Positions 16,016 through 34,504 of a stretch of DNA of 64,000 nucleotides are shown here, one piece after another (position 1 is the first letter of the stretch; the number at the start of each line of letters is the position of its first letter). The stretch is taken from NCBI GenBank assembly GCA_964568665.1, contig CAZMPY010000005.1, forward strand, positions 128,742 to 192,741, given 5' to 3'. Made by a program: the position numbers and the translations under genes. Under the pieces are notes generated by a model, which saw only the letters and a list, made by a program, of their open reading frames with translations, was not told where the DNA came from and searched no databases. This DNA comes from an uncultured Thermoplasmata archaeon (lineage in GTDB: Archaea > Thermoplasmatota > Thermoplasmata > UBA10834).

Positions 16016-16179
16016 CCATCGACCTCGATGACGTGGACTTCGGCTCGAACAGGTGCGTGTGCCCCGAATGCGGGAAGGAGGTCCCACACGCAAAGCGAGG
16101 CGTGCCCTGTTCGGAGACGAGATGCCCGAGCTGCGGAAGCATGATGAAAGGCAGGAAGTGCACGGAAGACAAGGAGTGA
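16012..16179 (+). CDS. Cys-rich zinc-ribbon mini-protein
   Basis: 55-aa reading frame from ATG 16012 inside ORF 15808..16179: MTIDLDDVDFGSNRCVCPECGKEVPHAKRGVPCSETRCPSCGSMMKGRKC. Coupled to both neighbours by overlapping stop/start codons. Confidence 0.5.
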   Translation: MTIDLDDVDFGSNRCVCPECGKEVPHAKRGVPCSETRCPSCGSMMKGRKCTEDKE

Positions 16180-16598
16180 TGTCATTGAATGGAGGCACTA
16201 CACAGGAAACCAAGCACGAGAGGATCTGCATCACGTCCACCGGGCGCACAGCGCTGGACCCGGTCGACCCGAGATTCGGAAGGTGCTCGTTCTTTCTCAT
16301 AGTCGATGGACGCAAGGACGGCTTCGAGGCTGTAGAGAACCACGCGAGGTCCCTCGGGAACGGCGCGGGCATCCAGGCGGCCCAGGAGGTCGCCAACCTG
16401 AGAGTCACAGCGGTCATAACGGGAGACCTCGGACCGAACGCCTTCCGTGTGCTCTTCGCGGCGGGGATCAGGATGTTCCACGCATCTGGCTGTGACGCCA
16501 ACCGGGCACTCTCAGAATACCGGGAGGGCAAGCTCTCCGAGATCACAGCGCCCACCGGGCAGGGACACCACGGGATGGGAGGACACGGGCCCAGGTGA
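16179..16598 (+). CDS. NifX/NifB-C-terminal-like (dinitrogenase FeMo-cofactor-binding fold) protein, copy 1
   Basis: Start ATG 16179 (TGATG overlap). ERICITSTG...PRFGRCSFFLIVD...AVITGDLGPNAFRVLFAAGIRMF fits the small NifX-like family. Gly/His-rich tail GQGHHGMGGHG. Confidence 0.7.
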   Translation: MSLNGGTTQETKHERICITSTGRTALDPVDPRFGRCSFFLIVDGRKDGFEAVENHARSLGNGAGIQAAQEVANLRVTAVITGDLGPNAFRVLFAAGIRMFHASGCDANRALSEYREGKLSEITAPTGQGHHGMGGHGPR

Positions 16599-17262: not shown

Positions 17263-17622
17263 TTGAAAATCTGTGTGCCCACGGGCGGGAAAGGCGGATA
17301 CGATGACATGGTGAGCGAGCACTTCGGAAGGGCTCCGACGTTCACCGTCGTCGACACCGAGAGCGAGAAAGTGAACGTCGTCGCGAACACGAGCGAGCAC
17401 ATGGGCGGCTCGGGCAAGCCTCCGGAGCACATAGCCCGGACGGGCGCGCAGGTGCTCGTGTGCTCTGGGCTGGGCCCCAAGGCCATCGAGATGTTCGAAT
17501 CATTCGGGATAGAGGTCTATGTCGGGGCCCAAGGGAGCACGCGACAGGCCATCGAGATGTGGCGCGCGGGCAAGCTCCAGAAGGCCTCCGACCAGAACGC
17601 CTGCAAAGAGCACAGTCACTAA
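17263..17622 (+). CDS. NifX/NifB-C-terminal-like protein, copy 2
   Basis: 119 aa (TTG start, 4 nt after previous stop). MKICVPTGGKGGYDDMVSEHFGRAPTFTVVD...VLVCSGLGPKAIEMFESFGIEVY. Confidence 0.75.
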   Translation: MKICVPTGGKGGYDDMVSEHFGRAPTFTVVDTESEKVNVVANTSEHMGGSGKPPEHIARTGAQVLVCSGLGPKAIEMFESFGIEVYVGAQGSTRQAIEMWRAGKLQKASDQNACKEHSH

Positions 17623-19408: not shown

Positions 19409-19566
19409 CGGCTTCATCAAGAGAGCGCGGGGTGCGGCCTCGCGATGGCCCTCAAGGATAGGCCTGACAGGTGATTCTGCTGCGACTCATCGGACATCAT
19501 CAGGGAAGGCTGGAGACAGCATTTCAAGGACAGGATCAGAGCGAAGGGTACGAAGGATGTGAAGAA

Positions 19567-19968
19567 ATGAAGGTATGCGTGCCGACAATGGAGAAGGGCG
19601 GATTGGATGACTCGGTCAGCGGACACTTCGGGAGGGCCCCGACGTTCACGATCGTCGACATCGAGACGAACGAAGTGAAGGTCCTCAAGAACGACGGAGA
19701 GCACTTCGGAGGCCACGGCGGGGCTACCTCGAACGTGGTCCAGTCAGGGGCCACGGTGGTCGTCTGCGGAGGGATCGGACCCGGGGCGATACGCCTGCTG
19801 ACGACCTCTGGCATCAAGGTCTATTCCGGAGCCACGGGGACGGCCAGGGACACGATCAAGATGTGGAAGGAGGGTGCGCTCCCGGTCGCCGACGCCGACA
19901 ACGCCTGCAAGGACCACAGACACGAGCACGGTCACGAAGGAGAACACGACTGCAACTGCCATCACTGA
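19567..19968 (+). CDS. NifX/NifB-C-terminal-like protein, copy 3, with His/Cys-rich C-terminal tail
   Basis: Start ATG 19567 inside ORF 19471..19968. MKVCVPTMEKGGLDDSVSGHFGRAPTFTIVD, close paralog of copy 2. Tail DHRHEHGHEGEHDCNCHH. Confidence 0.75.
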   Translation: MKVCVPTMEKGGLDDSVSGHFGRAPTFTIVDIETNEVKVLKNDGEHFGGHGGATSNVVQSGATVVVCGGIGPGAIRLLTTSGIKVYSGATGTARDTIKMWKEGALPVADADNACKDHRHEHGHEGEHDCNCHH

Positions 19969-26085: not shown

Positions 26086-26961
26086 TCACTGCGTCAGCAG
26101 GCTGTATACCATCACGAAGGCGGCCAGGTAGACGCCCAGCGTGAATATCGTCCGGACGGACCTCGTCTTGAGTCTCGCGAGGCCCCAGGTCGATCCGATG
26201 AGCGCAAGCACGAAGACGACCGGGGTGAGCACGAGCGCGAGGTCGTAGTGGATCGTTATGCCCTCCTTGAAGGCGTAGGCGAGCACGGCCGCTGGAGTCA
26301 GGACCGCGCCCATGAGCGCGGATGTCCCGATGGCCTTCCGCGTGTCGAACTTGAACACATAGACTATGAGCGGGACGCTGACGACGCCTCCTCCGATTCC
26401 GAAGCTCCCGACGAGCACACCCGTGAGGACGCTCACACCGATGCCAGCGAGTCTCCTCTTGAACGTGAGTTCGCACTCAGAGACACACCCCTCATTCTTC
26501 GTCTTGTACTGGTCGTACAGCATCCTAGTGGCGACGATTACCAGAAACGCAGCGAAAGCGGCCTTGACGAACTGCTCGTCGGTCGATGCGGTGAACGTCA
26601 CGCCGATCACGACCCCGACAAGACCTCCAGCCGCGAGCAAGAGCCCGAGTCTGAAGTCTACGAGGCCTTTCCTGTTGTGACTGTAGACCGCGCTGAGCAT
26701 CGTGAAGAACGCGAAGCACAGGGATAGGGGGACGATCTCCTTCATGGCCAGGCTCCCCCCAAAGAAGAGAACCATTATCGGCACGTAGAGCTGTCCGCCT
26801 CCAAGCCCGAGGTTGGAGTAGAGGAACGCGACAACACCCGTGAGCATCATCACGACCAGGATCGTGTCGAAACCGATTCCCGCGAAGTCCATCGGGGTGT
26901 GGAAAGCCCGCGGGATATTAAATCCGTGGGAGAGTACAATCGTTCGAACATCCGACCTCAT
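26086..26961 (-). CDS. TauE/SafE-family anion exporter membrane protein
   Basis: 291 aa, about 8 TM helices. Duplicated GLGGGQLYVP / GIGGGVVSVP motifs typical of TauE/SafE. TATA-like ATATTAT at 26988-26998 fits a near-leaderless start at 26961. Confidence 0.65.
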   Translation of the reverse strand: MRSDVRTIVLSHGFNIPRAFHTPMDFAGIGFDTILVVMMLTGVVAFLYSNLGLGGGQLYVPIMVLFFGGSLAMKEIVPLSLCFAFFTMLSAVYSHNRKGLVDFRLGLLLAAGGLVGVVIGVTFTASTDEQFVKAAFAAFLVIVATRMLYDQYKTKNEGCVSECELTFKRRLAGIGVSVLTGVLVGSFGIGGGVVSVPLIVYVFKFDTRKAIGTSALMGAVLTPAAVLAYAFKEGITIHYDLALVLTPVVFVLALIGSTWGLARLKTRSVRTIFTLGVYLAAFVMVYSLLTQ

Positions 26962-27012: not shown

Positions 27013-27020
27013 TTTTTATA
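27013..27020 (+). promoter_or_regulatory. TATA box for the AOR gene (near-leaderless transcript)
   Basis: TTTTTATA at 27013-27020, centred about 28 nt upstream of ATG 27045. No Shine-Dalgarno-like sequence in between. Confidence 0.5.
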
Positions 27021-27044: not shown

Positions 27045-28859
27045 ATGCCAGAGGCGGGCCGCATGAGACTCCTGAGGGTGGACCTCAGGTCCGCGAGGTT
27101 CGATGACCAGGACATCCCGAGGGAGGACCAGGTCAAGTACCTCGGTGGGCGGGGGCTCGCGGCGAGGCTGCTGTACGTCGAGAACAAACCGAAGGTCGGC
27201 CCCCTCGACCCCGAGAACAGGCTCATAATCATGACGGGGCCATACACAGGCACCCTGGGCTCGTTCACTGGGTTCTACAACATCACCACGAAGTCGCCCC
27301 TGACAGGCGCGATACTCTCGGCCCACTCGGGCGGCCACTGGGGACCGATGCTGAGGAAGACGGGCTACGACGGCATCGTGTTCAAGGGGCGCGCCCCTGC
27401 GCCCACCTATCTCAGCATCACGGACGCCGGTCCAGAGCTCAAGGACGCATCCGACCTCTGGGGCAAGGACGTCTTCGAGACCACGGGGGCCCTCGAGGAG
27501 AGACACAAGGCTGCGAAGGCGCTGGTGATCGGACCAGGAGGGGAGAACAAGGTCAGGTTCGCCGCCATCATGAACGACAAGCACAGGGCTGCCGGCAGAG
27601 GGGGCGCCGGTGCGGTCATGGGCTCCAAGAACCTCAAGGCCGTCGTCGTTCACGGGACCAGGGATGTGCCCCAGGCCGACCCGGAGAAGCTCAGGGAGAG
27701 CTTCAAGGCCGCGACGGCCACGGTCAAGGAGAAGAGCCAGGCATTCATGAAGTACGGCACGTCGATGGTGGTCGGGATCACCGGCAAGGCGGGGACCATC
27801 CCCACCAGGAACCTCCAGACGGGCTACTTCCCCGAGTTCGAGAAGATTGGCGGGGACGCGCTCGTGAACGGTCATGTCAACAGGAGCATCGCATGCGCCA
27901 GGTGTCCCCTGCACTGTGGCAAGGAGACCAGGGCCGAGAAGGACTACAGTGTCGTCACCGAGGGGCCCGAATACGAGACGCTCGCGATGTTCGGCTCGAA
28001 CCTCGGCAACCCTAACCTCGAATCGATCATCATGGCGAACGATCTGTGCAACAAGTACGGCATAGACACGATATCGTGCGCGGACACGATCGCGTGCGCG
28101 TTCGAGCTGTACGAGAAGGGCATCATCGGCGAGAAGGACACGGATGGCCTCAAGCTCGACTGGGGGAACCATCAGGCGATGGTGCAGCTCGTCGAGAGGA
28201 CTGGCAGGGGAGAGGGCTTCGGGAGACTCATAGGCGAGGGCTCGAGGAGGCTTGCGGCCAAGTACGGGCCCGGGGCGCACATGTACGCCATGAACGTCAA
28301 GGGCATGGAGTTCCCGGGCTACGACCCGAGGGGCATCCAGGGGATGTCCCTGGCGTACGCCACCTCCACGAGGGGCGCATGCCATCTCAGGGCGACCATG
28401 TACGTGCCCGAGCTGTTCCAGGGTGTGCTCGACAGGTTCACGGTCAAGGGGAAGGCGGAGACGCTCAAGGGCATGCAGGAGATGTTCACCGTGCTCGACT
28501 CGATGATCCTCTGCAAGTTCGGCGCCAGGAACGCCTTCGCGAACAGCTGGGACAACTTCGTCATGCTCGCCAACGCCGCCACCGGGTTCGGCTACACGGT
28601 CGACGACCTGAGGACGGTGGGCGTGCGTGGCTGGACCATGGAGCGGCTGTTCAACCTCAGGGAGGGGCTGTCCAGGAAGGACGACACGCTCCCGGAGAGG
28701 CTCTTCACGACGCCGATCCACGACGGCCCGTCGAAGGGCGCGGTCGTCAACAAGGCGGACTTCGAGGCCGAGCTCGACTCGTACTACGCGCTGTGGGGCT
28801 GGACCAGGGAGGGCGTCCCGACCAGGGACTGTCTGGACAGGCTGGGCATCAGCATCTGA
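27045..28859 (+). CDS. aor: aldehyde:ferredoxin oxidoreductase family (tungstopterin enzyme)
   Basis: 604 aa. MRLLRVDLRS...YLGGRGLAARLLY N-terminus, GRGGAGAVMGSKNLKAVVV, CARCPLHCGK [4Fe-4S] ligand region, KGMEFPGYDPRG, TSTRGACHLR. Confidence 0.9.
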   Translation: MPEAGRMRLLRVDLRSARFDDQDIPREDQVKYLGGRGLAARLLYVENKPKVGPLDPENRLIIMTGPYTGTLGSFTGFYNITTKSPLTGAILSAHSGGHWGPMLRKTGYDGIVFKGRAPAPTYLSITDAGPELKDASDLWGKDVFETTGALEERHKAAKALVIGPGGENKVRFAAIMNDKHRAAGRGGAGAVMGSKNLKAVVVHGTRDVPQADPEKLRESFKAATATVKEKSQAFMKYGTSMVVGITGKAGTIPTRNLQTGYFPEFEKIGGDALVNGHVNRSIACARCPLHCGKETRAEKDYSVVTEGPEYETLAMFGSNLGNPNLESIIMANDLCNKYGIDTISCADTIACAFELYEKGIIGEKDTDGLKLDWGNHQAMVQLVERTGRGEGFGRLIGEGSRRLAAKYGPGAHMYAMNVKGMEFPGYDPRGIQGMSLAYATSTRGACHLRATMYVPELFQGVLDRFTVKGKAETLKGMQEMFTVLDSMILCKFGARNAFANSWDNFVMLANAATGFGYTVDDLRTVGVRGWTMERLFNLREGLSRKDDTLPERLFTTPIHDGPSKGAVVNKADFEAELDSYYALWGWTREGVPTRDCLDRLGISI

Positions 28860-28935
28860 GGCCGCGCCCGCCGCTCATATAGCCAGTGAGCATTATCAAG
28901 TACGATAACCGCTCGGTGCGCCTTTATTACCGGAG

Positions 28936-29877
28936 ATGGGCCTAGCACGAGGTGGTGTCCGTTTGATCGAAGCCGAAGGCCTAGTCAAGGACTATAAGTC
29001 TGTGAGAGCGCTCGACGACATCAGCCTGAAGGTCGGTCGGGGCGAGATATTCGGGTTCTTCGGGCCGAACGGCGCCGGCAAGACCACCTGCATCAAGGTC
29101 CTCTGCGGCCTGACCGGGGTCTCCGACGGCCATGCGACCGTGCTCGGGATCGATGTCAAGAAGCACCCTGTCCACGTCAGGGACAACATCGCGATCCTGT
29201 CCGAGGAGACGAGGTTCTACGAGGAGATGACGGCGCGCAGGTACCTCAACATGTTCGGCAAGTTCATGCTGATGGGCAGGTCCGATAGGCTGGCGGCGAT
29301 CAACAAGACGGCCGACCTGGCCGACCTGCGCAAGTTCATGGACCAGAGGATCGGGACCCTGTCCCAGGGACAGAGGCAGAGGGTCTCGCTGGCAAGGGTC
29401 CTGATGGCCGACAAGCCCCTGGTGTTCCTGGACGAGCCCTTCGAGGGCGTGGACATCACGCACAGGCGCGCGCTCAGGGAACATCTGAGAAAGCACGTGG
29501 CCGGGGGCAACACGATCTTCTTCACTTCGCACAACCTGATCGAGGCGGAACACATCGTCGACAGGTTCGCATTCATACACCGCGGCAAGCTCATAGCTGT
29601 GGGCACGGCCGAGGAGCTCAAGGAGAAGTACCTGGCCCCGTCGTACCTGCTCCATGTCTCGGACCCCCAGAAGGCCAAGGAGATGCTCGACCGCGGCTTG
29701 AAACTCCAGGACCTCAGGATAGTCGAGGGCGACGTCGCGCTGACACTGCGGACGCGGTCCGATGCCGCCCAGATAGCGAAGATCCTGGTCCAGGAGAACA
29801 TCGAGCTCTATGAGATGCGCAGCACGGGCACGATGGAAGAGGTCTTCGAGCGCACATCCAGGGGTGGTGCGGCATGA
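28936..29877 (+). CDS. ABC-2-type transporter ATP-binding protein
   Basis: 313 aa. Walker A GPNGAGKTT, signature LSQGQRQRVSLARVL, Walker B LVFLDEPFEGVD. Stop overlaps the permease start (ATGA). Confidence 0.9.
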   Translation: MGLARGGVRLIEAEGLVKDYKSVRALDDISLKVGRGEIFGFFGPNGAGKTTCIKVLCGLTGVSDGHATVLGIDVKKHPVHVRDNIAILSEETRFYEEMTARRYLNMFGKFMLMGRSDRLAAINKTADLADLRKFMDQRIGTLSQGQRQRVSLARVLMADKPLVFLDEPFEGVDITHRRALREHLRKHVAGGNTIFFTSHNLIEAEHIVDRFAFIHRGKLIAVGTAEELKEKYLAPSYLLHVSDPQKAKEMLDRGLKLQDLRIVEGDVALTLRTRSDAAQIAKILVQENIELYEMRSTGTMEEVFERTSRGGAA

Positions 29878-31721
29878 TGCAGCAGACCCCACCGCCAGAC
29901 GATGAGCTGCCCCCGCCCCCGAGCGACATCGCGGATCAGACCAACAACTTCCCGGAGATCAAGGTCGTGAGGTCAGGTGCCCTCGCGACCGTCAGGCGCG
30001 CCTTCACCATATTCGAGAAGGACCTCAGGACGATGGCGAAGCACGGCCTGGTCAGCTCGGTCATACTCGTGGTCTTCCTCACTCTCGTGTTCTACATCAT
30101 GAGCTACTCCATGAACACGGTGATGAATACGGACATGTTCGGTGAAGGGGACGGCGAAGGCATGACCCTGCCTGGTGCGACCGAGAGCGTGCCGCCCGTG
30201 GCGGACGCTGGCAACGATGTCAGCATAGACGCGGGCGCCGAGGTCCATCTCGACGGCTCAGGGTCCACCGACAACGCTGCAATCGTTTACTGGTCATGGC
30301 ATCTCAGCGAGCTGGGCATCGACACCGAGCTCTATGGCGAGGGCGCCCACCACACCTTCGAATACGCTGGTGACTTCAACGTCACCCTCACCGTCGTCGA
30401 CTCCTCGTGGAACTTCGCGGAGGACAGCATGATGGTCCATGTGTCCCAGTCATCATCGGACACCGAGAACCCGTCCACGAGCTACATGCCCGACCAGAAC
30501 ATTCAGGTCGGGTCGACGGTCACATTCGACGGCTCCTCGGCGACCGACAACATCGGGATCGTGAACTGGACCTGGAGCTTCGACGATATCATCCCGAGGC
30601 TGTTGTACGGGGAGAGCGCGCAGTACACATTCGAGAACTCAGGGAACTACTGGGTGAAGCTCATCGCCAGGGACGCAGCCGGGAACGCGGCCGAGGGAAA
30701 CACCAATGTCAACGTCCAGCCCATGGGCGATGACTGGAGCCAGCCCTACGCAGACCCCGGGAACGGCGGGATAGCCACCGTCGGCGAGACGGTCAACCTG
30801 GATGCATCCAACTCACGGGACGACAACGGCACAATAGTGGCGTACACGTGGTACATCAGCCACAACGCGACGCTCTACACGCTCTCGGGCATGACCGCCC
30901 ACTTCACCCCGAACGAATGGGGCCCGTACGAGATCACGCTCGCAGTCAGGGACAATTCGGGCAACGCAGGCTCGAACCAGATGACGATCATCGCCCTGCC
31001 GGTCGGCATGGAGGTCGCCGGTCTGCCCTGGACATCCACGCCCCTCGGCGCGGACATATCGTTCAACCTCCTGACATACGTCTACGGCATAGCACTGCTG
31101 GCATCGGTGATCTTCATCGGCGGGCTGTTCGCCAAGGGCTTCGCCCACGAGATCCAGAAGGGCACGATCAAGGTGCTGTTCTTCGGACCGATATCCGTGA
31201 CAACGATGGTCTTCTCGAAGATACTGTACCCGATCATAATCGGTCCGGTATTCATAATCCCCCTGACCATGATAGCGCTCTCGCCGTTCGGCCAGCCGGT
31301 CAGCGACCTGCTGATCGTCACCCTCGTCGCCTACGCGCTCGCGGTGCTGACCATGGTCTCCGCGGCCTACGGCTCGTGCCTCATCTACCTGGGCGCCAAG
31401 AGGATGGTCCTCAAGCCGACGGTCGTCTCGAGGATCTTCATGTACCTCTCGCTCCTGGCCACGATGACGGTGTTCGAGTGGATGTCTTTCCTGTTCGACA
31501 TGTGGTTCGACACGGACAGCTACGGTGGCATGTACGCGGACTACGGCTCCGCGGTGGCGTTCCTGTCGCCGTTCCACCAGGGAGGGGTGTTCCTGTCCAA
31601 CATGATAATAGGGACAGCCCAGACGCCCGACTGGATAGTCTTCGCCATCCCGGTGTCGCTGATCGTCCTCGGAGTGATGGCATCGCACCGGCTATACCCG
31701 GACATGTTCTCGAGGGAGTGA
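29874..31721 (+). CDS. ABC-2-type permease with three extracytoplasmic PKD domains inserted after TM1
   Basis: 615 aa. TM1 (LVSSVILVVFLTLVFYIMSY), then about 270 aa with three PKD repeats (VHLDGSGSTDNAAIVYWSWHL, VTFDGSSATDNIGIVNWTWSF, VNLDASNSRDDNGTIVAYTWYI; nt about 30192-31005), then five or six TM helices. Confidence 0.8.
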   Translation: MMQQTPPPDDELPPPPSDIADQTNNFPEIKVVRSGALATVRRAFTIFEKDLRTMAKHGLVSSVILVVFLTLVFYIMSYSMNTVMNTDMFGEGDGEGMTLPGATESVPPVADAGNDVSIDAGAEVHLDGSGSTDNAAIVYWSWHLSELGIDTELYGEGAHHTFEYAGDFNVTLTVVDSSWNFAEDSMMVHVSQSSSDTENPSTSYMPDQNIQVGSTVTFDGSSATDNIGIVNWTWSFDDIIPRLLYGESAQYTFENSGNYWVKLIARDAAGNAAEGNTNVNVQPMGDDWSQPYADPGNGGIATVGETVNLDASNSRDDNGTIVAYTWYISHNATLYTLSGMTAHFTPNEWGPYEITLAVRDNSGNAGSNQMTIIALPVGMEVAGLPWTSTPLGADISFNLLTYVYGIALLASVIFIGGLFAKGFAHEIQKGTIKVLFFGPISVTTMVFSKILYPIIIGPVFIIPLTMIALSPFGQPVSDLLIVTLVAYALAVLTMVSAAYGSCLIYLGAKRMVLKPTVVSRIFMYLSLLATMTVFEWMSFLFDMWFDTDSYGGMYADYGSAVAFLSPFHQGGVFLSNMIIGTAQTPDWIVFAIPVSLIVLGVMASHRLYPDMFSRE

Positions 31722-31764
31722 CCAGCGAAAGGCTGAACTGGGAGACCGACGCTAGCGGACCGCC

Positions 31765-32136
31765 ATGAAGGTCTGCGTTCCGTGCAACTCGCCGGGAGGG
31801 CCAGATGCGGTCATCGCGTCGCCGTTCGAGGAGACCGACCTGCTGGACTACTACGAGCTCCTGCCGGATGGCAGGTTCGAGCACACGGCCCAGATGAGGA
31901 ACTGCGGGGACGCGGCATGCGTCAACCCCGTCGACGCCATCGCGAGCAGGGGAGTCGCGAAGATCGTGGTCACGGGACTCACCCCGACATCCCTGATGCG
32001 GCTCCACAACGCCGGCGTAAAGGTGTATCTCGCCAGCGACCCGCTCGCGCGCGCGGCCCTGGACGACCTCGCGAAGGGCGGGCTCACAGAAGTCACAATC
32101 GACCGGTTCGCGACCCTCGAAAGGACAAGGAAATGA
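31765..32136 (+). CDS. NifX/NifB-C-terminal-like protein, copy 4 (divergent)
   Basis: 123 aa. MKVCVPCNSPGGPDAVIASPFEETDLLDYYEL...KIVVTGLTPTSLMRLHNAGVKVY is collinear with copies 2 and 3 but lacks their HFGRAP motif. Confidence 0.6.
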   Translation: MKVCVPCNSPGGPDAVIASPFEETDLLDYYELLPDGRFEHTAQMRNCGDAACVNPVDAIASRGVAKIVVTGLTPTSLMRLHNAGVKVYLASDPLARAALDDLAKGGLTEVTIDRFATLERTRK

Positions 32137-32163: not shown

Positions 32164-32613
32164 CTAGAGCGCTTCGAGCTTGGCCTTGTTCACCAGGTTC
32201 TCCTTGGCCATGCGCTCCATGATCCTGGCGGCCTCCGACAGCAGGTGCTTCGCGATCTTCGCCGAGTCGTTGTAGAACCTGGCTGAGGTCTCCTCGATCA
32301 TCGCCGCATGCCTGGCCGCCGCCTTGAGGTCGGCGTCCTTGGACAGGTCGAGCTGCATCAGATAGTCCTCGCGCACGATGTCCGAGATCGGCTCGAGCAC
32401 CATCTCGTTGAGCTTCTCCCGCCTCGTGTTCTCAAGCAAGTTCCCGCGCTTCCTGTGGTTCTCCACGAGCGACCGGAAGGTCTCAGCGCCCTCGGCCAGC
32501 CGCGGGTCGGCGGCAAGCTCCGAGTTGACCACGACGGCGACCCTCTCGAGCTCCAGGGCGAACCTCATGACCGTCCCGAAGGACGTGCATTCCGGGAACT
32601 CGCTCTCCACCAT
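32164..32613 (-). CDS. hypothetical all-helical protein (four-helix-bundle-like)
   Basis: Start ATG 32613 (MVESEFPE), 1-nt overlap with the upstream dehydrogenase stop. 149 aa rich in E/A/L/R heptad-like segments. Family not recognised. Confidence 0.5.
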   Translation of the reverse strand: MVESEFPECTSFGTVMRFALELERVAVVVNSELAADPRLAEGAETFRSLVENHRKRGNLLENTRREKLNEMVLEPISDIVREDYLMQLDLSKDADLKAAARHAAMIEETSARFYNDSAKIAKHLLSEAARIMERMAKENLVNKAKLEAL

Positions 32614-34094
32614 CAGTACCACCTGGTGATCACTACCTTCCTGTCCGTGAAGAAGTTTATCGCGTCCTTGCCCTGCCCGTGCATGTCGCCGAAGAACGAC
32701 CCCTTGGCCCCCGCGAACGGGAAGTATGCCATCGCCGCGACTATGCCGACATTGATGCCGATGTTGCCGCACTGGACCCTGTACCTGAAGTCCCTGGCCC
32801 ACTTGCCGTTCTGCGTGTATATCGATGCGGCGTTGCCGTACGGGCTCTTGTGGATGAACTCGATGGCCTCGTCCATCGTGCCCATGCGCATGAACGACAC
32901 GACCGGCCCGAATATCTCCTCCTTCGCGATGGTCATGTCAGGCGTCACGCCGTCGAAGACCGTCGGCCCGATGAAGTAGCCCTTCTCGTACCCAGGCACC
33001 TTGATGTTCCGCCCGTCGAGGAGGAGCTTCGCGCCCTCGTCCACGCCCTTCTGGATGTATCCGAGGACCCTCGCCTTGGCGGCCGCGGAGATGACGGGGC
33101 CCATGTTCGAGCTCTCGTCGAGACCGTAGCCGACCTTGATCCTCTTCGATTCATCGAGCCACTTCTTGAGGAGCGGCTCCGCGATGTCGCCGATCGCGAG
33201 CATGTTCGAGCCTGCGAGGCACCTCTGGCCCGCGCAGCCGTAGAACGATGCGAGCATGTTCTTGACACTCGCGTCGAGCTTCGCGTCCGGCATGATCACG
33301 AGCGAGTTCTTGGCGCCGCCCTGGGCCTGGACCCGCTTGCCGGTCTCGCCGCACTTCTTGTAGATGTACTTCGCGACCGGCGTGGACCCGACGAACGATA
33401 TGCCCTTGATGCTCGGGTGCTCGAGCATCGTGTTGACAGCGTCCTCCCTTCCGTTCACCAGGTTCACGACGCCCGGCGGGAAGCCAGCCTCCTCGATGAG
33501 CTTGACCATGTGCATCGTCGTCAGCGGGACCTGCTCCGATGGCTTGATGACATAGGTGTTGCCTGCCGCGACCGCATACGGCCAGAACCAGAACGGCACC
33601 ATGCCCGGGAAGTTGAACGGGCATATCGCGCCGAACACGCCGAGCGGAGAGATTATGACCTCCTCGTCGATGTTGGCGGCTGCACCGTCCTCCAGGTTGT
33701 AGCCCATCATCAGCGATGTGACACCTGCTGCGACCTCGACGTTCTCGATCGCGCGCCTGGTCTCGCCCCTGGCATCGTCGATCGTCTTGCCCTGCTCCTG
33801 GGAGATGATCCTGGCGATGTCCTCGAAGTCGCGCTCCATTATGGTCTTGAGGTTGAACATCAGCCGCCCCCTGGAGATCGGTGGCGTCTCCCTCCACGAC
33901 CACCATGCCTCCTGGGCCGCCTCTATCGCCGCGGAAGTCTCGTCGCGCGTGGACATCGGCACCTTCGCGATGACATCCGTCGTCGCCGGGTTCACCACGT
34001 CCATGAACTTCGAGGTCTTCGAATCGATCCACTCGCCGTTCACGAAGTTCTTGATCTTCCCGTAGTCCTTCTTGACCTCAGCCAGTACTGCCAT
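32613..34094 (-). CDS. mmsA: CoA-acylating methylmalonate/malonate-semialdehyde dehydrogenase (ALDH family)
   Basis: Start ATG 34094 (MAVLAEVKKDYGKIKNFVNGEWID; AAGGAG 10 nt upstream) inside ORF 32613..34190. FNFPGMVPFWFWPYAVAAGNTYVIKPSE, catalytic FYGCAGQRCLA, EEIFGPV. Confidence 0.8.
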   Translation of the reverse strand: MAVLAEVKKDYGKIKNFVNGEWIDSKTSKFMDVVNPATTDVIAKVPMSTRDETSAAIEAAQEAWWSWRETPPISRGRLMFNLKTIMERDFEDIARIISQEQGKTIDDARGETRRAIENVEVAAGVTSLMMGYNLEDGAAANIDEEVIISPLGVFGAICPFNFPGMVPFWFWPYAVAAGNTYVIKPSEQVPLTTMHMVKLIEEAGFPPGVVNLVNGREDAVNTMLEHPSIKGISFVGSTPVAKYIYKKCGETGKRVQAQGGAKNSLVIMPDAKLDASVKNMLASFYGCAGQRCLAGSNMLAIGDIAEPLLKKWLDESKRIKVGYGLDESSNMGPVISAAAKARVLGYIQKGVDEGAKLLLDGRNIKVPGYEKGYFIGPTVFDGVTPDMTIAKEEIFGPVVSFMRMGTMDEAIEFIHKSPYGNAASIYTQNGKWARDFRYRVQCGNIGINVGIVAAMAYFPFAGAKGSFFGDMHGQGKDAINFFTDRKVVITRWY

Positions 34095-34504
34095 TCTATC
34101 CATTCTCCTTGAATCGCTACGCGGACCTGCCACTCGGCCAGGACGACTGCCACGAGCTGCGACCTGGTCCCCCAAACGGAAGCTGAACACACTCCGCAGG
34201 CTCCGTCAGAACAATCGCCCAGTCCCCGGGCACGCGCCTGCGAGCAAAGGTGCAGTGTTCCATCATATCGGTCCATTTTGGAATACGTTCAGCTTTTCGG
34301 GCCCAAACCTGCAGATATGTCAGTAATTTGTGGCCTCGTTCGCCGGAATGTGCTGCATATCTATTAACGTTGTGGTTCCGGGGGTCCCCAGAAGGCCGTG
34401 CCACACGGCCCGGATTCGGATTGCTGGCATAGGTGCCGCAAGCGCGCTCCTTCAACGGATCGGACGCCCTGCGGGAAAAGATACACGTTTGCGGGGCGGG
34501 AGGC

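Follow-up and report, generated by a model that had tools for sequence, protein, structure and literature searches.

The 64,000-nucleotide stretch of DNA analyzed here (the window) comes from a Thermoplasmata MAG and bears on its plus strand four consecutive genes, which respectively encode an aldehyde:ferredoxin oxidoreductase (AOR; 27045..28859), an ABC ATPase (28936..29877), a probable ABC-2-type membrane subunit (29874..31721) and a NifX-like protein, NifX4 (31765..32136), with gaps of 76, -4 (an ATGA overlap) and 43 nucleotides between them. Divergently from the AOR gene, across an intergenic region of 83 bp, lies a gene for a TauE/SafE (TSUP) family membrane protein (26086..26961, minus strand; Pfam PF01925, E=3.1e-41), which may actually begin at a more internal codon, given that the ortholog alignments set in at residues 17-32. 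This divergent pair is retained in all the loci of the family that were examined. The same-strand string of the original prediction, with its coordinates, its gaps and the divergent region, was reproduced exactly, and the gene identities that it proposed are supported by matches in Pfam, TIGR and PDB, in the case of the NifX-like protein by the fold. The comparisons reported below draw on a set of about 30 related archaeal genomes; a related-locus search seeded with a single protein recovered 3 loci only, and a scan for sigma-70 promoters and intrinsic terminators was disregarded as inapplicable to archaea.

The first gene of the string encodes a member of the AOR clade, which matches both Pfam domains over their full profile length (AFOR_N, E=4.3e-75, 252 bits; AFOR_C, E=3.1e-137, 458 bits). 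In PDB its matches include 9mqx (1.6e-146), 9g7j, the Pyrococcus furiosus AOR 1aor (7.6e-142) and 8c0z, and it is closest to characterized AORs (1e-132 to 1e-146) as against FOR (1e-90), WOR5 (1e-71) and BamB (3e-56), while the GAPOR model yields 24 bits only. With these known AORs it shares a full-length match, both Pfam domains and the CxxCxxxC...C ligands of the [4Fe-4S] cluster, readable in the translation as the motifs ACARCPLHC and RGACH, whose four cysteines we take to be equivalent to Cys288/291/295/494 of the P. furiosus enzyme. It differs from them in being one of three paralogs in its genome, in having no genes for AorA/AorC-type partner subunits adjoining it, and in that its metal and substrate are putative. 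The start codon is probably ATG 27063 (M7), going by the covariation of start codons among orthologs. Comparison of the orthologs further delineates a TATA box, TTTTTATA (27013..27020, plus strand), and downstream of it a conserved GTAGCAATTCRTTCGG element; a search of the genome for this downstream motif and for the TGCGAACAAT motif gave nothing informative. We picture the AOR as a cytoplasmic enzyme with tungstopterin and a [4Fe-4S] cluster, which would be expressed from its own TATA box with a short Shine-Dalgarno leader and would convert aldehydes to acids with the reduction of ferredoxin. Tungstate would reach it by way of a WtpABC importer whose genes are on a different contig, with WtpA (371.7 bits; cut-off 355) and WtpC encoded at C26:139184-142147.

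The ABC ATPase (PF00005, ABC_tran, E=1.4e-28) appears to be of the DrrA/NatA-like class, with TIGR01188 DrrA as the best match at 215.5 bits, which is below the cut-off of 312.45. It probably begins at TTG 28963, giving a protein of 304 aa, as suggested by the start codons of the orthologs at this position (TTG 15 times, GTG and ATG 2 times each). The membrane subunit, as delineated from Pfam PKD matches, AF2 secondary structure, alignment and relatives of its TM domain, comprises a first helix (TM1), three PKD domains (approximately residues 107-375) and five or six further TM helices, with AF2 helices at 36-85 and 399-607 and an invariant SPFHQGG motif in the C-terminal TM part. The window protein itself has no ABC2_membrane match in Pfam at E<0.01; one ortholog matches ABC2_membrane_4 at E=0.0027, and the link to ABC2_membrane_2/3/4 is made via distant relatives only, as 15, 7 and 6 of the 27 distant TM-domain relatives match ABC2_membrane_4, _2 and _3 respectively (best E=3.7e-9). 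This membrane-domain family is tiny, with 38 representative clusters among 1.84 billion proteins, and a profile search of the window's own genome with the TM domain returned no paralog. Foldseek with the full-length model recovered only Ig/FN3/cadherin-type matches, which stem from the PKD domains and are uninformative on the membrane fold. A NosFY-like or CcmAB-like cofactor exporter was considered and rejected, the sole match being to CcmB at a non-significant E of 0.12. A literature search found nothing relevant on PKD-bearing ABC-2 permeases.

No gene for a substrate-binding protein adjoins the pair among the ORFs of the locus and their Pfam matches, and the 4-nt overlap between the ATPase and permease genes recurs in the distant relatives. 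The exporter architecture that had been proposed for this pair is supported by both of these features. In DrrAB/NatAB-type exporters (TIGR01188, COG1668 NatB) one ATPase gene is likewise accompanied by one translationally coupled membrane gene with no adjacent binding protein, and the membrane protein has the same order of TM1, outside loop and five or six TM helices. Unlike in those systems, the ATPase here does not reach the DrrA cut-off, the membrane domain is without a Pfam ABC-2 match, the outside loop is formed by three PKD domains and the substrate is putative only. The two genes would make up an ABC-2-type exporter that is complete in itself, presumably a (NBD)2(TMD)2 complex, in which the three PKD domains form the first outside loop of the membrane subunit.

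Upstream of the predicted ABC promoter we identified a palindromic operator, TTATCAAGTACGATAAC (28893..28909, plus strand; consensus TTATCA-N4-YGATAWC), that is exact in 13 of the 21 ortholog loci and has one mismatch in 7 more, always 53-56 nt ahead of the start codon. It is followed by a conserved TATA-like box, TTTATTA (28923..28929, plus strand), ~34 nt before TTG 28963. A second copy of the operator is present at C26:147547-147563, ahead of a gene (C26:147615-147989) for a protein with a weak HTH_20 match (E=1.4e-4), and this copy is conserved in the orthologs of both the family and its sister family. The pattern was found in 37 of 37 family genomes, as compared to a single match in total for the reversed control. 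The C26 gene resembles those of ArsR/TrmB-like wHTH autoregulators in encoding a small HTH_20 protein and in having a perfect 6-N4-6 palindrome at its own promoter; here the palindrome is kept across two families and is common to a transporter promoter. Accepting this resemblance, the C26 gene would be an autoregulated ArsR/TrmB-like wHTH protein, predicted to bind the operator in response to a putative effector and to act by repression or activation, and the ABC-permease pair would be transcribed from its own promoter under the control of this operator. Sister genera additionally have a gene for a GyrI-like small-molecule-binding protein ahead of the exporter. Most likely, the exporter serves to expel, in a regulated manner, a small candidate substrate of toxic or hydrophobic nature, rather than to act in partnership with AOR.

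The latter alternative, in which the ABC-PKD system is tied to AOR, for example in the removal of toxic aldehydes or acids, and NifX4 is unrelated to both, draws on the adjacency of AOR, ABC ATPase and permease in each of the family's four genera, which could reflect a functional tie. However, both units lie within a block of ~15 kb that is equally conserved throughout. Moreover, the ABC-permease pair was lost twice with AOR retained (in G028 and in G011, the latter with a deletion scar in which the N-terminus of the GyrI-like protein is fused to the C-terminus of the permease), the operator is common to the distant regulator gene and not to the AOR promoter, and no AOR is found near the distant relatives of the permease, whose genes are coupled to one for ABC_tran. 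We consider this tie very unlikely.

NifX4 (plus strand, 123 aa) is a divergent protein with the Nitro_FeMo-Co (PF02579) fold. It scores 20.8 bits (E=4.8e-4) against PF02579, a model with a gathering score of 26.3, and 15 of 16 orthologs match the model at E<=0.1 (best E=7.2e-9). A profile of the orthologs recovered 1rdu (1e-9), 1t3v/1o13 and 1eo1 from PDB, with TM1290, TM1816 and MTH1175 among the matches. Consistent with this, the top 15 PDB matches of its AF2 model (pLDDT 88.5, pTM 0.81) in Foldseek all have the Nitro_FeMo-Co fold, including ORP (2wfb), NifX (9ian_F) and NafY (1p90), and with TM-scores of 0.66-0.85 they confirm the RNase-H-like alpha/beta fold of the family. The NifX-like assignment is thereby borne out by profile and structure alike, as is its designation as a fourth copy, given that the genome has four PF02579 matches, all inside the window. 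NifX4 would be a stand-alone small protein of the NifX/NafY-type fold, comparable in fold and size to TM1290, TM1816, MTH1175, MJ0327, PH0822, Ta1041 and the Desulfovibrio ORP, and distantly to NifX and NafY. In contrast to the small stand-alone PF02579 proteins it falls below the Pfam gathering threshold and lacks both FGRAP and the His-Gly loop; relative to the three canonical copies of its genome it has FEETD for FGRAP and C-x(1-4)-C (C47, C52) for H-x-GG. Its orthologs are invariant at C4, P10-G11-G12, C47 and C52, and the subfamily comprises 37 clusters, all from Thermoplasmata MAGs. Together, C4, C47 and C52 probably act as thiolate ligands of a metal or of an Fe-S-type cluster, a binding predicted from the invariance of these three cysteines. 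A more specific proposal, that NifX4 typifies a novel Cys3 group within the NifX/ORP fold, which binds Fe-S or thiometallate (W/Mo-S) through these residues and has as its client in aldehyde metabolism either the ferritin-like/semialdehyde dehydrogenase pair described below, its constant neighbor, or, in this family, AOR, is to our mind speculative and rather improbable.

The original prediction had also connected NifX4 to the cluster at 12.9-20 kb of the window. This cluster is ORP-like, ORP clusters being marked by genes for MinD-like Fe-S ATPases, for Mrp and for DUF134. NifX4 is outside it, at a distance of 11.8 kb, and in the sister family it occurs in an unrelated neighborhood; the connection has a common fold as its only basis.

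Immediately downstream, and convergent with NifX4, is a gene for a 149-aa divergent ferritin-like or rubrerythrin-like helical protein (32164..32613, minus strand), an assignment that comes from weak profile matches (PDB 2fzf, 1.2e-4; Ferritin_2, 3.6e-5, and Rubrerythrin, 1.4e-3, for the orthologs). At its start it overlaps with the stop of the preceding gene (32613..34190, minus strand), which is for a CoA-acylating methylmalonate/malonate-semialdehyde dehydrogenase (MMSDH; TIGR01722, 561 bits against a cut-off of 448.5), which is the last large gene of an aminotransferase operon. A hemerythrin gene lies within the dehydrogenase/ferritin-like operon in the window. AOR has as a neighbor an operon for the catabolism of omega-amino acids and semialdehydes. 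The NifX4 genes of the sister family and of metagenome contigs lie between a divergent Oxidored_FMN gene and a convergent pair of a 139-aa ORF and Aldedh; no AOR is present near NifX4 in the sister family and the metagenomic relatives, and the AOR ortholog of the sister family sits on another contig. The ancestral and most stable neighbor of NifX4 would be the semialdehyde dehydrogenase/ferritin-like pair and not AOR.

In another reading NifX4 partners the convergent pair, for example as a source or buffer of iron, or of a small cluster, on which the ferritin-like four-helix protein would draw, and its position behind the permease is incidental. The grouping of NifX4, the ferritin-like ORF and Aldedh is the only association kept in both families and the metagenomic relatives, and the ferritin-like profile signal, the second Ferritin/Rubrerythrin gene on the other side of NifX4 in the sister family and the hemerythrin gene of the dehydrogenase operon point in the same direction. 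However, the convergent orientation means that NifX4 and the ferritin-like gene are not co-transcribed, the signal for a ferritin-like protein is weak (best E=1.2e-4), and the dehydrogenase/ferritin-like pair is unchanged in at least eight loci that have no NifX4 (L033-L037, L040-L042), where TauE, AOR, ABC ATPase, permease and the ferritin-like ORF all stay, as does MMSDH where the contig extends. A partnership of this kind seems to us unlikely.

The same loci bear on the reading with which the original prediction had linked the string, namely that the four genes are a functional operon, with NifX4 as the carrier or inserter of a metal cofactor (tungstopterin or Fe-S) for AOR and the ABC-2 system as the exporter of the acids that AOR forms. 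The short gaps and single strand, the order AOR-ABC-permease-NifX4 kept in about 17 genomes from three genera, and the cofactor-carrier fold of NifX4 with its invariant cysteines are all compatible with it. Against this, AOR orthologs are full-length with 75-81% identity in at least eight NifX4-less loci, and AOR is likewise intact in the two loci without ABC-permease; the NifX4 of the sister family has no neighboring AOR; and a search of 8.4 million papers found none linking NifX-like proteins to AOR or tungsten. The promoter and operator elements are also separate and conserved: besides the operator and TATA-like box of the ABC gene, a BRE/TATA-like element, GCGAAAG(C/G)ATAAT, is conserved upstream of NifX4 in most orthologs, and in one genome (G034) AOR and ABC are split by 4.5 kb that includes opposite-strand genes. 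These observations argue against obligate co-transcription as well as against the functional link between NifX4 and AOR, and we regard the one-operon reading as highly improbable. The expected synteny holds across four genera of one family, but its members were lost separately.

We propose instead that the string is probably a gene-order block inherited within one uncultured Thermoplasmata family and composed of three independent units, namely AOR, the ABC-2-type exporter and NifX4. As these predicted transcription units have promoter-like elements of their own and were lost separately, nothing ties NifX4 to the maturation of the tungsten enzyme, and the locus is best described as modules that happen to be neighbors, an ordinary arrangement with modest lineage-specific variation. 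This halts the spread of the unsupported labels "AOR maturation factor" and "AOR-linked exporter". Three modest leads emerge, namely a cysteine-containing branch of the NifX/ORP-like carrier fold, which is itself poorly understood, a very small ABC-2 family whose ectodomains are of the PKD type, and a conserved operator-regulator pair predicting exporter control. They leave the current view of tungsten enzyme biogenesis unchanged.

Within the block, no oligo-T terminators follow AOR or the permease, so that transcription could continue through all four genes. In this particular genome the element before NifX4, GCGAAAGGCTGAAC (31725..31738, plus strand), is a degenerate copy of the conserved one, and with the 43-nt gap this suggests that NifX4 may depend here on transcription of the permease. 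Finally, the genomes without NifX4 still carry canonical NifX-like paralogs, which could substitute for it.

The four plus-strand ORFs around the aldehyde:ferredoxin oxidoreductase (AOR) are good gene calls in the arrangement originally predicted. They encode AOR (27045-28859; Pfam AFOR_N, 4.3e-75, and AFOR_C, 3.1e-137), an ABC ATPase (28936-29877; ABC_tran, 1.4e-28), a 615-aa permease with three Pfam PKD domains (29874-31721) and a 123-aa NifX-like protein, NifX4 (31765-32136), with gaps of 76, -4 and 43 nt; on the minus strand, a divergent gene for a TauE/SafE membrane protein (26086-26961) is separated from the AOR ORF by 83 bp. With a GC3 of 0.80-0.91, all these ORFs show the signature of coding sequence in this genome (a 1.95 Mb MAG with 62% GC, 89.75% complete), and their homologs carry annotations from Thermoplasmata/Thermoplasmatota MAGs. 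Three AOR paralogs occur in the genome, as do four matches to PF02579, all of the latter inside the window.

The closest PDB matches of AOR are true AORs (9mqx, 9g7j, 1aor and 8c0z, 1e-132 to 1e-146), and its translation carries the cluster-ligand motifs. Another contig of the genome, C26, encodes a WtpABC tungstate importer (C26:139184-142147), in which WtpA scores 371.7 bits against a curated cut-off of 355 and the WtpC-like ATPase, at 417.9 bits, falls just under its cut-off of 440; these two genes are consistent with tungsten use. Convergent to NifX4 is an operon that combines a hemerythrin gene and two genes for class-III aminotransferases with one for a CoA-acylating semialdehyde dehydrogenase (TIGR01722, 561 bits); it also contains a 149-aa ORF (32164-32613, minus strand), whose start overlaps the dehydrogenase stop. 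This ORF encodes a divergent helical protein of the ferritin-like/rubrerythrin-like type (PDB 2fzf, 1.2e-4; Ferritin_2, 3.6e-5 in orthologs) with invariant residues including F6, F12, G13, R17, E23, H53, R56, E70, E74, P75 and E107, and its pairing with the dehydrogenase is conserved across two families. The theme of the neighborhood is aldehyde and amino-acid catabolism, an ordinary setting for an AOR.

NifX4 itself matches PF02579 weakly (20.8 bits against a gathering score of 26.3), but its assignment to the NifX-like fold is well supported. The domain is matched by 15 of 16 orthologs from related genomes (best 7.2e-9), and a profile of their alignment recovers stand-alone family members with solved structures: TM1290 (1e-9), TM1816, MTH1175, MJ0327 and PH0822. 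The 15 best PDB fold matches of its AlphaFold2 model (pLDDT 88.5, pTM 0.81) all have this fold, including the Desulfovibrio orange protein, NifX and NafY. Residues C4, P10-G11-G12, C47 and C52 are invariant in the orthologs. NifX4 shares the strand-1 cysteine C4 with the three canonical copies in the window, but their FGRAP motif and His-x-Gly-Gly loop are replaced, with C47-x(1-4)-C52 occupying the place of the loop. Only 37 clusters among 5.8 billion proteins belong to this subfamily, and those that are named all come from Thermoplasmata or Euryarchaeota MAGs. NifX4 is nevertheless a distinct subfamily within the NifX/ORP fold, a small Cys3 offshoot that retains interest. The canonical copies (17263-17622, 19471-19968 and 16053-16598), which belong to the ORP-like cluster, carry their strand-1 cysteine in a K-I/V-C-V/I context, and two of the three have Cys/His-rich C-terminal tails (NACKEHSH; NACKDHRHEHGHEGEHDCNCHH).

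The original prediction was that NifX4 may take part in AOR maturation and that the ABC-2 system might serve AOR, for instance by exporting its products; neither proposal is supported by presence/absence, wider synteny or promoter architecture. We compared ortholog regions from some 30 genomes, which represent four genera (g1-g4) of the window's own family as well as the sister family. Gene order is indeed kept within the family, in a block of about 15 kb comprising TauE on the minus strand, then a plus-strand run of AOR, the ABC ATPase, the permease and, in the genomes that have it, NifX4, followed convergently by the ferritin-like ORF, the dehydrogenase, hemerythrin in some genomes and the two aminotransferases. 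Because this whole block is conserved, adjacency inside it is weak evidence for a common function. NifX4 is cleanly missing from all five g4 and three g3 loci examined (L033-L037, L040-L042), yet these eight retain full-length AOR (75-81% identity), the ABC ATPase, the permease and the ferritin-like ORF, and also the dehydrogenase wherever the contig reaches that far. Conversely, in the sister family and three further metagenomic contigs a NifX4 homolog (23-31% identity, invariant residues unchanged) is flanked by a divergent Oxidored_FMN gene on one side and by a convergent 139-aa ORF with an Aldedh gene on the other, and the sister-family AOR ortholog is on another contig. The dehydrogenase/ferritin-like pair is hence the sole NifX4 association surviving across families, and the simplest history suggested by these loci is that NifX4 ancestrally lay beside this pair and was lost at least two times. 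In one same-genus locus (L023, G001:C1:1-18200), AOR, the permease, the ferritin-like ORF and hemerythrin appear as split tblastn matches in different frames, likely reflecting indel errors or pseudogenes; the assembly concerned has very long contigs.

The exporter genes are likewise separable from AOR, which is kept in two genomes (G028 and G011) that lack both the ABC ATPase and the permease. In G011 a deletion scar (L038 8642-9117), an ORF remnant in which the N-terminal fragment of a GyrI-like protein is fused to the last ~50 permease residues (SPFHQGG...LYPELFS), shows that the ATPase and most of the permease were lost recently. Distant permease relatives with two PKD domains (476-478 aa) overlap an ABC_tran gene by 4 nt with no AOR nearby; therefore, the ATPase and PKD-permease form a self-contained module. 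The ATPase is DrrA/NatA-like: its best NCBIfam match, DrrA (TIGR01188), scores 215.5 bits, below the cut-off of 312. The ABC-2 assignment of the permease is supported transitively and not directly: a Pfam/NCBIfam scan of the protein gave no ABC-2 membrane family match, but among 27 distant relatives of its TM domain ABC2_membrane_4 was found in 15, _2 in 7 and _3 in 6, and PKD domains in 10. A phmmer scan with this domain recovered only 38 clusters in 1.84 billion representative proteins. In the AlphaFold2 prediction TM1 is a long helix (36-85), residues 116-375 form three beta-sandwich domains, and further helices cover 399-607, among which two short ones lie around the invariant SPFHQGG (565-571), ahead of the final TM helix; fold comparison was dominated by the PKD domains. 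Nothing found points to export of AOR products, and a GyrI-like partner gene in sister genera together with an ArsR-like regulator weakly suggests small-molecule efflux. This small-molecule-binding GyrI-like gene (156 aa; Pfam 1.8e-24) lies between AOR and the ABC operator in genera g3 and g4 (L024 5672-6142; L027 5621-6103; L036 8002-8472; L040 11295-11768; L041 1669-2139; L042 6370-6840; L026 9440-9934) and is absent from the window's genus and g2.

Transcription and start signals, all predicted from conservation, would also divide the string. AOR has a strong TATA box (27013-27020) followed by a conserved element, and the start conserved among orthologs corresponds to M7 (27063), a codon at which ATG, GTG and TTG alternate, 8-12 nt downstream of a GGAGG-like element; AOR would therefore have a short leader and not be leaderless. 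The ABC ATPase start (28963, L10; TTG in 15, GTG in 2 and ATG in 2 orthologs) is preceded by a GGTG-like element, and the longest-ORF starts at 27045 and 28936 are probably too far upstream. Before NifX4, a BRE-plus-TATA-like GCGAAAG(C/G)ATAAT occurs in 9 of 13 family orthologs; its end lies some 24 nt upstream of the start codon, the spacing expected for a leaderless transcript, and AT-rich TATA-like sequences take its place in the sister-family genes. The window copy (31725-31738, GCGAAAGGCTGAAC) is degenerate, and NifX4 here may be transcribed by read-through from the permease gene, which is possible because no oligo-T terminators were seen in the gaps between the four genes.

Upstream of the ABC gene every ortholog carries a palindrome, TTATCA-N4-YGATAWC (28893-28909 in the window), which matches exactly in 13 of 21 loci and with one mismatch in 7 more and is followed by a TATA box (28923-28929), a CCTAG element and the GGTG motif. 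Its distance to the ABC start codon is fixed at 53-56 nt, and it remains directly before ABC despite the GyrI-like gene inserted after AOR and, in one genome (G034), despite a 4.5 kb insertion including opposite-strand genes. In the window's genome the palindrome recurs with the same surrounding layout at one other site only (C26:147547-147563), directly upstream of a gene for a 125-aa HTH_20-type/TrmB-like wHTH protein (C26:147615-147989), and this site is conserved before wHTH orthologs in both families. The pattern is present in 37/37 family genomes (1-5 sites each), against one match in total for a reversed control pattern. We infer that the predicted autoregulated wHTH protein would control the exporter operon independently of AOR. 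The rare ABC-2 family with a PKD ectodomain and this shared operator-regulator pair retain interest; like the NifX4 offshoot, they represent known kinds in lineage-specific form. Immediately before the operator, many orthologs have another conserved TATA-like element, with GCCAG after it (28874-28888; CTCATATAGCCAGTG), which could be a second promoter with its start site inside the operator. Some genera show extra recurrent palindrome sites, such as TTATCAATCCCGATAAC, suggesting a small regulon.
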